DNA from: a virus
Lineage: Duplodnaviria > Caudoviricetes
Reading direction: 5' to 3' (one strand)
Virus record (IMG/VR): IMGVR_UViG_3300029305_003084
Length of the DNA stretch: 64,000 nucleotides
Shown here: in pieces, positions 829 to 39,435 of the stretch
Numbering within the stretch: position 1 is the stretch's first letter
Layout of the letters: each line of letters opens with the position of its first letter
Made by a program: the position numbers and the translations under genes
The notes under the pieces: model-generated
The model's database searches: none
What the model was told of the DNA's origin: nothing
Seen by the model: only the letters and a program-made list of their open reading frames with translations

Positions 829-2002
829 TGTTTATATTCACATAAGGTCGTTACTCTTATGCCGTTCTCTTATGAACTGCTACATATTTCTATGTAGACT
901 AGACTATATCTTCATTTTAGATTTTTCTAAAATGTTTCCCATTTCCACTCACTTGAGTGTACGTCTTTCGACTAGTCGTTGAACGTTCGTTTAAAAATAT
1001 TTAAAATTTATAATAATTTGAAATATCTGTTCGTCTTTCTCTATTTTTAATATTGCGAACATATCTACTACTACATCCAACAATATTTGCAATTTGACTA
1101 ATTGTTAAATTGTTCTCCTCTAATAATTTACATATCATATGAATTGAGTCGTTGGAAACTTTATTCATTAATCTTGGAAACTCAAAATTTTTTGAAATAT
1201 GTGTCCATGTATTACGATTATTTATATGATATATAGTATCTTCGGAAATATTTAATATCTCAGATATTTCTTTTATAGATTTATTATTAGATAACATTTC
1301 ACAACATTTTAATACTGTCTCGTCATTAATTTTAGCAAAATTACAATTTTCACCAATATTTGATCTATTATCACATAATCCACTATCAAAAGCATGTTTT
1401 ATATTTTCACTATGAGTACACCATTCTAAATTATAAACACAATTATTAGTCTTATCGCCATTACAATGATTTACTTCTAAATCATCATATGATAATCCTT
1501 TATCTAAATATTTTTTAGGAATAGGAATAAATGTCATTGCAACCAATCGATGAATTTTACATTTTTTAGTATTATCACCAAGTTTTAAATTAACATACAT
1601 ATATCCTTTTTTATATTTACTGATAGATAATGGTTTATTACTTAACATGCTATATATTTCACCGTTAGTAGAGATTATATAATCTGAATACTGTATTCCA
1701 TTTACATAAAGAGGACTTTTCATATAAATATCAATTAGTAACATATTAATATCACTTCCTTTCATTAATATAATATATAATTGAAATATATAAAATAACG
1801 ATTAGTATTGTGAATTGTTAAATATATTTTTAAACGCTTCGCTGCGGATTGTCCAATCTTATAATCTTTTTACTATACCTAAGGCATTACCCTTCGCCCT
1901 TATCTATATCACTATGATAAGTTAGTAATTATAAGCTCTAAGGAGTTTCCCGCAATTAGAGAAAATTCATTATGTCAATATGACATAATGGGCACACAAT
2001 TT
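829..2002 (-). mobile_element. Group I intron (IA2-like) with HNH homing endonuclease in P6a
   Basis: Minus strand has AATTGCGGGAAA (P), AATCCGCAGC (Q), GTTCAACGACTA (R), GAAGATATAGTCT (S), P2 hairpin CATTATGTCA/TGACATAATG, P7.1/P7.2 hairpins; removal restores ESG|AFARR. 3' boundary uncertain by 1 nt. Confidence 0.9.
1001..1765 (-). CDS. Intron-encoded HNH homing endonuclease (NUMOD4/HNH with C-terminal HTH-like repeats); true start probably 1744
   Basis: YIISTNGEIYS, KIHRLVAMTF, EVNHCNGDKTNNCVYNLEW; RBS GAAAGGAAG before the second Met; early-type promoter at about 1770-1785. Confidence 0.9.
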   Translation of the reverse strand: MKGSDINMLLIDIYMKSPLYVNGIQYSDYIISTNGEIYSMLSNKPLSISKYKKGYMYVNLKLGDNTKKCKIHRLVAMTFIPIPKKYLDKGLSYDDLEVNHCNGDKTNNCVYNLEWCTHSENIKHAFDSGLCDNRSNIGENCNFAKINDETVLKCCEMLSNNKSIKEISEILNISEDTIYHINNRNTWTHISKNFEFPRLMNKVSNDSIHMICKLLEENNLTISQIANIVGCSSRYVRNIKNRERRTDISNYYKF

Positions 2003-4754: not shown

Positions 4755-5894
4755 GTGAGGAGGAATTTTAAAATGAGCAACAATGAAGGTTATTATGTAA
4801 TTGATATTGTTACTGAAGACTCACGTCAATCTATTTTAGATGAAATGAAAGCTCTTAGTAACTTTTCAGTAAAGAAACAAAAGATTGATGATATTGAATC
4901 AGGATCATTAGTTATTAGTGAAATTGCAACTACTAAAAAAGAAAAACCGAAAAAGAATAAAAAGAAAAAGAAATCATTATTAATTGGTGCATTTGATGAT
5001 GAAGACGAAATCAACGAAGAAGGAAAAACTCGTCAAGAAATTGATGAAGAATCATTATTAGATGTTGATTTAATTATGAGAGAACTTGAAGAAGAAGAAT
5101 TAGATGAATCTATTATTGGTGAACAAAAGAAAAATTATAAAAAGAATAAAAAAGATAATAATGATTTTAAAAAGGAATTTGCTGATGAATTAGCATTATT
5201 ATATAATTTATTAGATGAAACTTCTAAATTTGGTAAAGGATTAGAAAAAGATTTAAGTCAATTAAAAGGTAGTAAGGTTAGAGGTGTTTCTAAATACACC
5301 AATGATTTAACAGAACTAATTCTTACATCTAAACAAAATAAACTAAATATTCTAAAAGAAATCACTTCTGTAAAGAAAACAATTGCTGATCTGAAAATGA
5401 AAGCAGAAGCAAAAGATAAGCAGAAAGATAATGGTACAAATAGTCCTGAGTATCTAGCATCTGCATATCTACGTAATATTTTAAATCATGGTAGAACTGA
5501 CTTCATTTCTACAATTTCTAATAATGGTATTGATCCAGATAATCCTTCATTATTATCTTCTAATGACTATATTGATGAGGAAGATGATGATAAGTACACT
5601 AAGTTTATGATGGATAGACTTGATAGTGATGAGAATCCTTATCGAAGTTCTGAAGGATCTAAATATATTGAATATGAAAATGATGATGTTAAATTACATG
5701 TAAAAAAATGTATTGACACTGGTGAGTGGGAATTTGTTGCACTAACTAAAACTGGTAAACAACTATATGATTATCCTTTACCTAGTAAACGAGATGCTGG
5801 TAGAATGAAATTTAGTGATGATGGCAATTATGCAACTGATGCAAAAGGACGTATGTATAATGTAATTGAATATTTCCTTCCTGATGATGATTAA
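4755..5894 (+). CDS. Hypothetical charged/coiled-coil protein (start probably 4773)
   Basis: Long ORF, GAGGAGG RBS, AACA-N6-TA promoter at 4733. Confidence 0.8.
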   Translation: MRRNFKMSNNEGYYVIDIVTEDSRQSILDEMKALSNFSVKKQKIDDIESGSLVISEIATTKKEKPKKNKKKKKSLLIGAFDDEDEINEEGKTRQEIDEESLLDVDLIMRELEEEELDESIIGEQKKNYKKNKKDNNDFKKEFADELALLYNLLDETSKFGKGLEKDLSQLKGSKVRGVSKYTNDLTELILTSKQNKLNILKEITSVKKTIADLKMKAEAKDKQKDNGTNSPEYLASAYLRNILNHGRTDFISTISNNGIDPDNPSLLSSNDYIDEEDDDKYTKFMMDRLDSDENPYRSSEGSKYIEYENDDVKLHVKKCIDTGEWEFVALTKTGKQLYDYPLPSKRDAGRMKFSDDGNYATDAKGRMYNVIEYFLPDDD

Positions 5895-5897
5895 ATA

Positions 5898-5938
5898 TAA
5901 AAAAGACAGATAGAAAATTTTCTATCTGTCTTTTTTTA
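5898..5938. terminator. Bidirectional intrinsic terminator closing the 36-nt array transcript
   Basis: AAAAAGACAGATAGAAAA-TTTTCTATCTGTCTTTTTTT perfect inverted repeat with A/T tails. Confidence 0.85.
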
Positions 5939-5940
5939 TT

Positions 5941-6192
5941 TTTCCCGGATGATACTATGAGCGTCCTTGATTCATTTTGATACTGTGATACTCTATGTAA
6001 AGTTGATTCATTAGGAATCCCTGATACAATTTTTTAGATTGATTCATTGTTGCCACATGATACTATCTGAAGAACTGATTCATTCCTTATCCTAGATACT
6101 ATAACATGGGTTGATTCATTTTGACGTTCTGATACTATAATACGAGCTGATTCATTCCATATGTATGATACTATGTGAACACTTGATTATGT
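5941..6192 (-). ncRNA. TIGR-like guide RNA array: 7 units of 36 nt (AATGAATCA-N9-ATAGTATCA-N9)
   Basis: Two alternating 9-nt conserved repeats separated by 14 unique 9-nt spacers, exact 36-nt period (252 nt), no fully open reading frame; architecture as described for TIGR arrays. Confidence 0.8.
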
Positions 6193-6579
6193 AATATAGA
6201 ACGGTCTTAAAACTTCATCAAAGAATTTCTGAAAATCACCATAATAGCAACTCTCAAAATACATTTCTTCAACAAAGCTTTCATCCAGGCCATATTTCAT
6301 ACAACAAAGACTAATATTAGCCTTAGTATCAAAGCAGTAATCATCCTTGCTAACATGGTCCTGATAATAGGTGTTCATGGCATCCTGATTACCATCATCA
6401 AGACAACGGACGAAATGAGACTTATAGACAGTATCTACCTGATCAAGATTAGAAACCATCCAATAGCCAAGGAAAATTGTGCTTATTATAAACACTATTA
6501 CACCCAATACCATAAACTTACACATGGCATCAGAGCAATACATACAAGGATGCTGATTCTGAGACTTATTCTTTTTCAT
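6187..6579 (-). CDS. Hypothetical membrane-anchored protein (130 aa); stop codon overlaps first array repeat
   Basis: N-terminal Cys cluster plus TM helix FMVLGVIVFIISTIFLGYW; RBS GAAAGG. Confidence 0.75.
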   Translation of the reverse strand: MKKNKSQNQHPCMYCSDAMCKFMVLGVIVFIISTIFLGYWMVSNLDQVDTVYKSHFVRCLDDGNQDAMNTYYQDHVSKDDYCFDTKANISLCCMKYGLDESFVEEMYFESCYYGDFQKFFDEVLRPFYIT

Positions 6580-6584
6580 GATGT

Positions 6585-6717
6585 TACCTTTCTGGTTTGT
6601 GAAGTTTTCCTTCTTCTTATTAAATAATAATGATTGAGAAGGATCATAGAAAATATTCTAATTATTTCCTTCTTTATTATGATTATAATATATATTTGAA
6701 AGTGTTGACTTTACGAT
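6585..6717 (-). promoter_or_regulatory. Early promoter plus structured leader, duplicated at 30822-30955
   Basis: ATCGTAAAGTCAACACTTTCAAATATATTATAATCATAATAAAGAAGGAA...CCTTCTCAATCATTATT...AAGAAGAAGGAAAACTTCACAAACCAGAAAGG nearly identical in both copies. Confidence 0.75.
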
Positions 6718-6763
6718 TAAAAAAATACAGAGGATATTAATCCTCTGTATTTTTAATTATTGA

Positions 6764-7213: not shown

Positions 7214-7822
7214 TTAATTATTATGTAATTTAATTTTTGCTAAAGAAATTGCGATGTTATATTCTTTAGCAAAAATATTACTGCCATGATTATTGTTCAC
7301 AGCGGTTTCAAACTCATCAATAGTTCCATTGAAATATCCACAAACAACACCAATATTATCATTGATATTATAAAATGTAGTATAATCATTTCTAGAACCA
7401 ATAGGTCCAATTACTAAAATATCAGATATTTTAGTAATATTAGCATTTTCAGATACCCGAGCATTTCCAGATACCCAAACATATCCAGATACCTGAGCAT
7501 CCCCATATACCTGAGCATTTCCAGATACCCAAACATTTCCAGATACCCAAGCATCTCCATATACCTGAGCATTTCCAGATACCCAAGCATTTCCAGATAC
7601 CCGAGCATTTCCATATACCTGAGCATCCCCATATACCTGAGCATTTCCAGATACCCAACAATCTCCATCATGAGAAAGATTTTCTTCTTTCTCAATATAT
7701 CCACCAAAATCACCCTTCGTAACATTCCATCTGGGAATATCATGAAGAGCACGAATTTGATACAGAGTTTTATCGGAAATAGTGATGGTATTGTTAGTCA
7801 ATTCATATTTTTTGTTTATCAT
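7214..7822 (-). CDS. Hexapeptide-repeat (left-handed beta-helix-like) phage protein
   Basis: KKYELT...LYQIRAL...GDFGGYIEKEENLSHDGDCWV then (VSGNAQ/VYGDAQ)n 18-bp repeats; paralog at 38740. Confidence 0.85.
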   Translation of the reverse strand: MINKKYELTNNTITISDKTLYQIRALHDIPRWNVTKGDFGGYIEKEENLSHDGDCWVSGNAQVYGDAQVYGNARVSGNAWVSGNAQVYGDAWVSGNVWVSGNAQVYGDAQVSGYVWVSGNARVSENANITKISDILVIGPIGSRNDYTTFYNINDNIGVVCGYFNGTIDEFETAVNNNHGSNIFAKEYNIAISLAKIKLHNN

Positions 7823-7947: not shown

Positions 7948-9081
7948 TCACTGATATAAACTCATGCGATTAGAATAACAGAAATAAGTTGTTCCTAAGT
8001 GAGGAATTTGTACAGCTTTCCAAATACCACTACCCTGTCTAAAGTTTGCTTGGAAAACTACACTTTCAGGCATACAACGATAACCTTCTAATAATTTTTT
8101 AGCATTATTATAGGTTCTCTGATCAACTGTATATTTATTAAATAAATGTGGTGCGTACTGACCCTTCTGATAGGCAACACCCCTAACGGTATTAGGAAAT
8201 TCAGGAGATGCAACTCTGTTTAATACAACATTACCAAACATAAGTTGCTGTTCATCTGTAATCCAATATGAGCCAGCTTCACAATACATAATTCGTGCCA
8301 AAATTTCTAAATCCTCAGCAGTATAGGAGGAATATTTAGGTACTTCAGGTTCTTTAGGAGGATTATAATTCATGATCGTATAATCTGCAACATATTCTTT
8401 CATAGGGTTTTTAAACACTCTATCTAGAATAACACATAACTGTGCTCGAGTTACAAAGTCATCTCCTCTAAATGTTCTATCAGAGAATCCACCAATATAT
8501 CCTTCTTTAACAGCATATGCGATATATGGTTTCTGTTTATCACTAATTTTATCAGAGTCGGTGAAGAATAAATCAAATACCTCTGTATCGATACCAGTAG
8601 TATCAACACCTCTCATCTTTAATACAGTAGTGATAAGATCTGATCTTTTAACATTTTTATTTGGCATAAATAGCATATCACCAGTTTCAGTATTTCTCCA
8701 CTTACCTAAATATGGACGTACTGCTTCAACATAAGGAGACATCACACTAGATTCATTGACATCATCAAATGCACTTACTCCTAAATCAACAACTGATAAT
8801 TCTGCTATATTTGCAAGAATCTTTGCAAGTTCTACTCTAGTTACAATCTCGTCAGGTTTAAATTCTCCATCCTTATAACCATGAACAATATCACGGTTTG
8901 TTAAATCTGAGATTGTTTCATATGCCCAATGGCTTTCATCAACGTCACTGTATTGAATTTTAGTTTCAGTGACAATCTCATCTTGCACCTCTACGGCATA
9001 AGACTTTTCTGTCATAACTACTGGAATTGCAGCAATTATAACTGCGAGTGCAATCGCTAACTTAACAAATCTGACATTCAT
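7948..9081 (-). CDS. Secreted SLH-domain protein with C-terminal SleB/Hydrolase_2 cell-wall hydrolase
   Basis: Signal peptide; SLH motifs YSDVDESHWAY...GYKDGEFKPD...TRVE and GFSDRTFRGDDFVTRAQ; ILARIMYCEAG...VVLNRVASPEFPNTVRGVAYQKGQY. Confidence 0.88.
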   Translation of the reverse strand: MNVRFVKLAIALAVIIAAIPVVMTEKSYAVEVQDEIVTETKIQYSDVDESHWAYETISDLTNRDIVHGYKDGEFKPDEIVTRVELAKILANIAELSVVDLGVSAFDDVNESSVMSPYVEAVRPYLGKWRNTETGDMLFMPNKNVKRSDLITTVLKMRGVDTTGIDTEVFDLFFTDSDKISDKQKPYIAYAVKEGYIGGFSDRTFRGDDFVTRAQLCVILDRVFKNPMKEYVADYTIMNYNPPKEPEVPKYSSYTAEDLEILARIMYCEAGSYWITDEQQLMFGNVVLNRVASPEFPNTVRGVAYQKGQYAPHLFNKYTVDQRTYNNAKKLLEGYRCMPESVVFQANFRQGSGIWKAVQIPHLGTTYFCYSNRMSLYQ

Positions 9082-23219: not shown

Positions 23220-24124
23220 CGTTTATGTTCACATAAGATCGTTACTCTTATGCCGTTCTCTTATGAACTGCTTTATGTTTCCATAAAGACCAGACTATAT
23301 CTTCATCTCCCTATATTGATATAGGGAGATGCTCCCCGTTTCCACTCACTTGAGTGTACTCTACTCATAATGATATATCTATTACATACATATCATCATT
23401 ATTTTCGATAGTCGTTGAACCTTCCTCATCTTTCCAAGTTTTACCTCGTTTAATATCATGAATTAAATTTGCTAATCTTATGTTATCTTTACATTGATTA
23501 TAACCCAATTCATTCATAATTTCTAATCTACTATATCCTTTAGTTAATAGATTTTTAATTAGTGAAACTAACTCTGGAGAATATTTATTAGCATAGTGAT
23601 TTGTGCCTTTTTTAGCACTACGCATACCATCTTTAAAAGCATGACGTGAATTTTCACTAGAAGTTACCCATTCTAAATTTTCATAATAGTTATATTGTCT
23701 ATTAGAATCTTTATGATTTGGATAAACCCTTTCAGTTAATTCATCGTATCCTGGACAAAATTCCCAAGCAACTAATCTATGTACTTTAAAATTAGTCGGC
23801 CTTTTATTATTGCGAGATAATACTACACGTTGATATCCTTTAGTATCTGTATATGCAGTTAAATATCTATTACTGATTTTACTAAATACCTTACCATAAT
23901 TACTAATCATATATGAATCTTCTTTAACTCCAGAATATGTTATTGCTCTAAATTCTTCTTCATCTTTTGGAATTATTATATAAATAATTATCATCCTTTC
24001 ATTATAAATAATTATTAATATAAATGAGGCTTGGCTGCTGATTGTCTTCGGCATTACCCGGTCAAAGTTCCCAGCAATTAAAGGAGTTTTCTATATACAT
24101 CACTGTATATAGGAGCTATTATTA
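23220..24124 (-). mobile_element. Group I intron with HNH homing endonuclease, inserted in the GRxG|NKG motif
   Basis: ATGGGT|taataatagctc...; P/Q/R/S elements; ends TGAACATAAACG|AATAAAGGT; splicing gives GQKISGRMG-NKGVVS. Confidence 0.93.
23365..24054 (-). CDS. Intron-encoded HNH homing endonuclease (true start probably about 23994)
   Basis: YMISNYGKVFS, KVHRLVAWEF, PNHKDSNRQYNYYENLEW; RBS GAAAGG before MIIIY. Confidence 0.88.
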   Translation of the reverse strand: MPKTISSQASFILIIIYNERMIIIYIIIPKDEEEFRAITYSGVKEDSYMISNYGKVFSKISNRYLTAYTDTKGYQRVVLSRNNKRPTNFKVHRLVAWEFCPGYDELTERVYPNHKDSNRQYNYYENLEWVTSSENSRHAFKDGMRSAKKGTNHYANKYSPELVSLIKNLLTKGYSRLEIMNELGYNQCKDNIRLANLIHDIKRGKTWKDEEGSTTIENNDDMYVIDISL

Positions 24125-38739: not shown

Positions 38740-39435
38740 ATGAAAAAATATGAACTGACTAACGAGACTATGGAATTCCCTGATAACATCATTTTTTATC
38801 GTATTCGTGCACTGAGAGATTTCGGTGATGTTAAGAAGGGTGATCTTGGTGGATATATTGAGAAAGAAGATAATCTTTCTCATGATGGAGATTGTTGGGT
38901 ATATGGAAATGCTACGGTAATTGGAGATGCTAGAGTATATGAAAATGCTCGAATATTTGGAAATGCTGATATACATGGAAATGCTCGAGTATATGGAAAT
39001 GCTCAGGTACACGGATATACCGATGTATTTGGAAATGCTCGAGTATATGGAAATGCCGAAGTATATGGAGATGCTGATGTATATGGAGATGCTGATGTAT
39101 ATGGAGATGCTTTAGTATGTGGATGTGCTGATGTATCTGGAAATGCTCGAGTATGTGGAAATGCTCAGGTATTTGATGATATTTTAGTATCTGGAAATGA
39201 TCGTATATTTAAAACTAATCAGGATATTCAAAGAGAACAAAACTCTTTTCGCGACAAAATACAGGGGGTAAATAAAAAGGCTAATGAGTTAGAAAAACTC
39301 AAAAAAGACCAAGATAAACTTAAAGAGTTATTAGAATCTTCTCTGGTATATATGCGTACAAAAGAAGTTGATGCTGAGTATGTAAAACTACGAGATAAAC
39401 TCGATCGATGTTTCCAGATCTTAGCTGAAGAATAA
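38740..39435 (+). CDS. Hexapeptide-repeat protein with C-terminal coiled coil
   Basis: Paralog of 7214-7822; (VYGNAR/VYGDAD)n. Confidence 0.82.
   Translation: MKKYELTNETMEFPDNIIFYRIRALRDFGDVKKGDLGGYIEKEDNLSHDGDCWVYGNATVIGDARVYENARIFGNADIHGNARVYGNAQVHGYTDVFGNARVYGNAEVYGDADVYGDADVYGDALVCGCADVSGNARVCGNAQVFDDILVSGNDRIFKTNQDIQREQNSFRDKIQGVNKKANELEKLKKDQDKLKELLESSLVYMRTKEVDAEYVKLRDKLDRCFQILAEE

Follow-up and report, generated by a model that had tools for sequence, protein, structure and literature searches.

A seven-unit dual-repeat TIGR array about 150 kb from the tasA gene of an AR9-like phage

The stretch of DNA analysed here (the window, 64,000 nucleotides) forms the first 64 kb of viral record G000, which is 247,146 nt long and rated 100% complete, and carries on its minus strand a dual-repeat TIGR array of seven units. 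We consider it probable that this array is functional and works in trans: an early transcript would yield seven tigRNAs, and a dimer of the TasA protein encoded at a distant site would use them to block non-self DNA without cutting it. TIGR-Tas was published as a system type in 2025 (Faure et al. 2025, PMC12045711), and by itself the array is no new mechanism; it would work like the published dual-repeat TIGR-TasA systems. The array and its flanks comprise the following features.

Window 5937-6188, minus strand: dual-repeat TIGR array of seven units; predicted 36-nt tigRNAs AAUCA-N9-loop-N9-AAUG, the final one ending in AAUA.
Window 6184-6188, minus strand: first edge repeat, AATCA, 5'-truncated, overlapping the TAA stop of a 130-aa ORF.
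Window 5937-5940, minus strand: last edge repeat, AAT(A), 3'-truncated.
Window 5899-5936, no strand assigned: bidirectional intrinsic terminator with a 17-bp stem, closing the array transcript and the converging gene.
Window 4755-5894, plus strand: conserved 379-aa gene converging on the array; a synteny marker whose orthologue flanks the array of the related phage G004.
Window 6187-6579, minus strand: 130-aa ORF with an N-terminal hydrophobic segment, of no family and not a Tas protein, upstream of the array and predicted to be co-transcribed with it.
Window 6571-6710, minus strand: promoter/leader cassette of ~130 bp, with 8 long copies elsewhere in the genome at 85-97% identity.
Window 6685-6697, minus strand: AR9-type early (virion RNA polymerase) promoter core, AAATATATATTAT; consensus from PMC5312081.
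Window 6721-6754, no strand assigned: hairpin terminator of the preceding operon, located upstream of the promoter.

Direct reading of the minus strand confirmed the seven units and their 36-nt period base for base. [quoted passage not shown] An earlier reading made from the letters alone (the sequence-only reading) had listed 14 spacers and three loop variants, all of which match at a period of exactly 36, and had described truncated ends and a terminator, as found here (AATCA start, AAT(A) end, then the 17-bp hairpin). The array that it placed at 5941-6192 is real, with the start corrected to 6188. Chance is excluded by the extra exact repeat copies (log10 P ~ -39), and the array is not an assembly artefact because nine other assemblies contain an identical copy of the whole array and a tenth agrees with it throughout the stretch that it covers.

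A dual-repeat TIGR array is defined by two distinct alternating repeats of 8-12 nt and unique spacers of ~9 nt. The window array has two 9-nt repeats and 9-nt spacers, and this anatomy, with a Nop-domain TasA elsewhere in the genome, supports the proposed identity as a TIGR-type guide array. A CRISPR array, with one 25-36-nt repeat and spacers of like length, was ruled out. Spacers are more GC-rich than the genome, and the sequence-only reading had found most of them more GC-rich than the flanking DNA (54/126 = 0.43 versus 0.29, p = 8e-4). Within units, spacers A and B show no similarity, complementarity or GC correlation. Rfam gave weak hairpin matches only, and an exact-pattern search of GTDB genomes found no such array.

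In published TIGR repeats, 4 nt separate a 2-nt box D from a 3-nt box C; positions 2 and 7 pair with each other, and the edge repeat has one pair more. The edge gap of the window array, TGAA, has complementary ends, and those of the loop gap, AGTA, are not complementary; by this published rule, as well as by the array ends, edge and loop had been assigned correctly. Across six phages, the edge AA-UGAA-UCA has A-U at positions 2-7 in 183 of 195 repeats and U-A (169) or U-G (17) at positions 3-6, together 186/195, and the loop has A-A at positions 3-6 in 182/210, so the extra edge pair is absent from it. The loop AU-AGUA-UCA deviates from the published pair at positions 2-7, where U-U occurs in 148 of 210 repeats from the six phages without covariation; in the window array this position is U-U in 6 units and G-U in 1. 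Box C (UCA) and the first base of box D are common to edge and loop, and position 2 of box D differs. In the wider repeat family, loop positions 2 and 7 covary, being G-C in 93, A-U in 49 and U-A in 34 of 457 units, which are not independent; Watson-Crick pairs number 177/457 against a mean of 128.6 and a maximum of 156 in within-locus shuffles, a comparison to which the same non-independence applies. Among the wider arrays with the same edge, it is the loop that alternates, between AG...CCA, AA...UCA and AU...ACA. The array ends fit a cut between AAUG and AAUCA.

In six or more other loci, viral or metagenomic, a TasA gene has the same edge repeat beside it; these repeats therefore mark a broad TasA group and not this phage in particular. 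The published SpTIGR array itself carries an AA...UCA variant. The divergent repeats that the sequence-only reading stressed are thus present, and less unusual than it implied. Long arrays with the same edge repeat were also observed in a virus group (L112, L114, L118, L119, L124-L126, L130-L133, L004, L010 and L025); its members have many orthologous units in common, with 0-3 substitutions, and this group is suited to a study of spacer turnover.

The promoter core AAATATATATTAT at window 6697-6685, about 110 nt upstream of the 130-aa ORF, is an exact match to the AR9 early-promoter core, which is consistent with the early expression suggested before. The genome contains this core motif 60 times. 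Of its 47 intergenic occurrences, 44 are co-oriented with the next gene, and the motif lies upstream of all five arrays of the genome and of tasA. We infer on this basis that the arrays and tasA would be co-expressed early. Terminator-like sites number 4 against 0.4 expected. Copies of the promoter/leader cassette at G000 33.1, 104.6, 231.6, 232.3, 232.9, 237.5, 238.2 and 238.9 kb form a family of modular early genes.

The sequence-only reading had advised looking through the rest of the genome for further arrays and for a Nop-fold gene, and both are present: a single tasA and four sister arrays with the same two repeats.

G000:208,593-210,026: tasA, encoding a 477-aa TasA, directly upstream of a 17-unit array.
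G000 208.4-207.7 kb: tas-adjacent sister array of 17 units, directly downstream of tasA.
G000 85.4-87.0 kb (85,402-87,015): sister array of ~44 units.
G000 153.2-153.5 kb: sister array of ~8 units.
G000 226.2-226.7 kb: sister array of ~13 units.

The gene was located by a PF02371 profile search, the PF01798 (Nop) profile having no match in the genome, and a profile search of this record, rated complete, found no second tas copy. TasA matches TaTasR (9MTY) with a phmmer E of 2e-15 and SpTasH with 1.5e-10, and its top 11 Foldseek matches are all Tas structures, with IS110 recombinases at ranks 12-22. In the model, a short, helical N-terminal segment (~35 residues) is followed by a coiled coil and a Nop domain, with no RuvC or HNH, and a family search gave no nuclease family match. 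An IS110 transposase was ruled out, there being no N-terminal DEDD RuvC domain. In SpTasH, Y289 and the catalytic H296 make up the processing dyad; H296 aligns with TasA H286, which is invariant in 23 relatives, and Y289 aligns with Phe279, a position occupied by Tyr in several relatives; the C-terminal processing loop is present. A 61-aa ORF immediately upstream of tasA (L034:8096-8281, minus strand; G000 ~210.1-210.3 kb) is paralogous to the N terminus of TasA but truncated (32% over 65 aa, E 4e-6); it may be a duplication remnant or a dimerisation regulator.

In the sequence of events that we propose, the virion RNA polymerase would make an early transcript of ~780 nt containing the leader, the 130-aa ORF and the array. 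A TasA dimer from the distant gene would bind the box C (UCA) and box D motifs, and the precursor would be cut inside each edge repeat, between AAUG and AAUCA, to give seven 36-nt tigRNAs. Each tigRNA would direct TasA to an 18-bp site consisting of spacer A and the reverse complement of spacer B, where binding would block transcription or replication; cutting is not expected because TasA has no nuclease domain. The targets would be non-self DNA slightly more GC-rich than the phage, such as host genes or competing mobile elements. Repression of transcription by TasA proteins has been reported in E. coli for stem-loop TasA of another clade (bioRxiv 10.64898/2026.09.09.750476).

Among the closest published systems are the dual-repeat TIGR-TasA systems, for example FpTIGR of Flavonifractor plautii (PMC12045711), which likewise have alternating edge and loop repeats, 9-nt spacers, a 36-nt period, truncated terminal edges, a terminator, 5-15 units and a solo, nuclease-free, phage-borne Nop-domain protein. 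In contrast, the window array lies ~150 kb from tasA and is one of five, its boxes are AA/AU...UCA rather than UG...CCA, with box D position 2 unlike between edge and loop, and the phage TasA is extended by 180 aa at its C terminus. SpTIGR-TasH of Salicola phage CGphi29 (PDB 9W03, 9W04, 21KL; PMC13421893) is the best structural match to the TasA Nop domain and shares the aligned histidine (H296/H286), and its AG...CCA repeats have natural AA...UCA variants; SpTasH differs in its HNH nuclease, with which it cuts DNA, in an array directly downstream of its gene and in Y289, which is Phe in the phage TasA. TaTIGR-TasR (PDB 9MTY) is the best sequence match, and its edge repeat has two base pairs, as in the phage. 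Its dyad position is Trp where the phage TasA has Phe, both aromatic and neither Tyr, and TaTasR has a RuvC nuclease, which the phage TasA lacks. The MbTasA and dead TasR repressors (bioRxiv 10.64898/2026.09.09.750476) exemplify the nuclease-free mode of RNA-guided DNA binding in which the phage TasA is likely to act, although they are stem-loop systems without the processing loop and the phage system is dual-repeat. The IS110/IS621 bridge recombinases have a related Nop/Tnp domain (the PF02371 match), but the phage TasA has no DEDD RuvC, is present in a single copy and has a guide array instead of a bridge RNA.

With tasA at G000 208.6-210.0 kb and the array at 57.8-58.1 kb, a distance of ~150 kb, or ~95 kb should the genome be circularly permuted, the window array lacks the adjacency of a canonical TIGR-Tas locus and was therefore classed as remote within a TIGR-TasA system. 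At the level of the genome, a protein with a coiled coil and a Nop domain and no N-terminal nuclease is linked to arrays of the same repeats, as in TIGR-TasA systems. The five arrays together hold about 90 units, and no unit of the window array is common to any other. The window array and the tas-adjacent array are the least decayed, all seven units of the former being of exact length; the other three have irregular unit lengths, block duplications and genome-like GC. Sister arrays terminate in AATG. The 44-unit array has internal block duplications with diverged unit copies (those at 86045 and 86718 differ at 2/18 spacer bases), and therefore arrays can also grow by duplication.

The distance from tasA, the decay of three sister arrays and the lack of any target found would also suit a silent relic or reservoir, left after rearrangement or the loss of a tas copy and no longer loaded. 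We think this unlikely, given that the seven units are all of exact length with perfect edges and their own promoter and terminator, that no unit is common to other arrays, and that G004 keeps an array at the same site with different spacers, the only one found there.

This last observation comes from five related phage records, read over their full length and compared with G000. Four have one tas match each and the fifth is a fragment with no match; each relative has one to three arrays. The tasA site beside thyX is common to G000, G001 and G004. In G004, which has 57% core-protein identity to G000, no array adjoins tasA. A single array, of ~33 units, was found in that record, 111 kb from tasA. 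On one side it is flanked by a weak homologue of the 130-aa ORF and on the other by the orthologue of the window gene at 4755-5894, which places it at the site of the window array, with which it has zero spacers in common. A tasA with no array beside it and the only array at the syntenic remote site support action in trans; G004 is 85% complete, so its record may lack further arrays or another tas. A sister relationship of G000 and G004 is not resolved by the tree (support 49), and shared ancestry and independent insertion at the site both fit. In G001 and G005 this site is without an array, and gene junctions that hold other arrays lack them in relatives. A two-unit mini-array between DNA polymerase and SbcC-like genes (G003:266,989-267,060) is a possible seed or remnant.

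The simplest reading of the relatives is that arrays arise at new sites where a promoter is present, are used in trans and have their spacers renewed in place. The more general proposition, that arrays in this clade are uncoupled from tas, seeded at new early-promoter sites and renewed in place, with one TasA serving up to ~90 guides, seems to us about evenly poised. The PMC12045711 survey sought arrays within 5 kb of tas genes and the TIGRFinder preprint sought them 'surrounding tas loci' in 10-kb contexts; a remote array would therefore be missed, and the G004 tasA would be scored as arrayless. The published count is 6,685 arrays for 20,096 tas loci, searched near tas only. If arrays are uncoupled, remote arrays would be expected for many published 'arrayless' tas loci, and orthologous ones, such as those of the window and G004, would offer a handle on spacer acquisition. 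One TasA with ~90 guides in five early-type arrays of a complete genome makes the guide set per phage several-fold larger, which would give target searches the statistical power that they have been missing once the host is identified. Our search for papers on TIGR with jumbo phages or orphan arrays found nothing relevant, remote arrays being absent from the literature searched, and those supplements of PMC12045711 that are in text form contain neither the repeats nor the contigs of the phage.

The RNA polymerase subunit of G000 is nearest to those of AR9, PBS1, phiR1-37 and Staphylococcus jumbo phages (25-27% identity). The AR9-like genome of 247 kb agrees with the jumbo phage of a Firmicute named by the sequence-only reading as regards the phage; the Firmicute host is weakly supported, the clue being an SLH-domain cell-wall hydrolase that hints weakly at Clostridia, with matches of 24-48% identity only. 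A cell-wall hydrolase with SLH and Hydrolase_2 domains is encoded at window 7948-9081 on the minus strand, and the syntenic version in G001 is shorter and without SLH.

From the 8-nt 3' overhang and C-5 rule, the target strand should read as spacer A followed by the reverse complement of spacer B (A+rcB). The paired-site search of this kind that the sequence-only reading had proposed gave no target above chance in the phage itself, five relatives, IMG/VR or 401 Oscillospirales genomes. In G000 and the five relatives (gap 0 only), the best A+rcB matches equalled three control geometries, and no unit of the window array had a match with <=2 mismatches in these six genomes. The IMG/VR search covered six of the seven units (1, 2, 3, 4, 6 and 7): exact A+rcB 18-mers of units 2, 4 and 7 gave none, and units 1, 3 and 6 gave 1, 3 and 20 matches at gaps of 0-2 nt. 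These were rejected as targets, since they fall in unrelated genes of unrelated viruses and their number scales with AT content, as at chance level; a unit 6 match in the DNA polymerase gene of phiR1-37 was likewise rejected, the homologous site in six relatives having 6-10 mismatches. All seven targets had no 18/18 match in the 401 Oscillospirales genomes, only chance matches of 15-16 nt, and the host may lie outside this group. Natural targets are known for very few TIGR arrays.

The guides might instead act through imperfect matches, either as regulators of genes of the phage itself or to keep out close relatives; with a non-cutting TasA, self-targeting would be tolerated, and Tas proteins accept edge mismatches (PMC12045711). 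We hold this to be very unlikely, since matches in the phage and its relatives do not exceed the control geometries (gap 0 only) and spacer GC is 0.43 against 0.29 in the genome. Because there is no such excess, the targets of the seven guides are probably neither self nor kin.

Residues 300-477 of TasA (P0001) form a C-terminal extension of 180 aa that is specific to its lineage and contains two similar small beta-beta-alpha-beta-beta modules; it is common to only one relative, and searches with it gave no informative homologue or fold match. A 53-aa ORF downstream of tasA (L034:6443-6604, minus strand) weakly resembles these modules. The only unit common to G000 and G001 (G000:85,442 and G001:50,467) is 15/18 identical between the two and, in A+rcB geometry, reads GGAGG with AT 8 nt later, resembling a ribosome-binding site; it is one case and may be chance. 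The two-module extension, flanked by the truncated paralogue and the module-like ORF, and this common unit could be taken to mean that the TasA ribonucleoprotein acts on RNA or brings in a further factor, for instance by way of the extension, instead of just blocking transcription on DNA. We see hardly any likelihood in this, since most relatives with the same arrays have no extension, TaTasR is inactive on RNA (PMC12045711), and the unit is a single case of imperfect identity.

The sequence-only reading had stated that no frame of the array is fully open, and the six frames do contain 2, 6, 9, 14, 5 and 5 stops, those of the NES/IVS frame being the ORF stop and one internal TAA. That the array is a degenerate protein repeat (NES-xxx-IVS-xxx), for instance a read-through of the 130-aa ORF, with which this frame of a single internal stop is in phase, can practically be dismissed despite the 116-aa ORF that gene callers predict in the tas-adjacent array, as stops are numerous in all frames of the sister arrays, whose units of 34-40 nt also break the frame, the repeats are conserved at the nucleotide level with RNA-type covariation, and they are linked to TasA in other viruses.

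Elsewhere in the window, two genes at 7214-7822 (minus strand) and 38740-39435 (plus strand) contain 18-nt/54-nt tandem repeats that encode a hexapeptide beta-solenoid, the L141 allele being shorter. A 13-nt tandem unit, CGTTACTCTTATGC, is found three times near HNH-type ORFs (window 849-874, 2032-2057 and 23240-23265), and these sites are probably group I intron ends.
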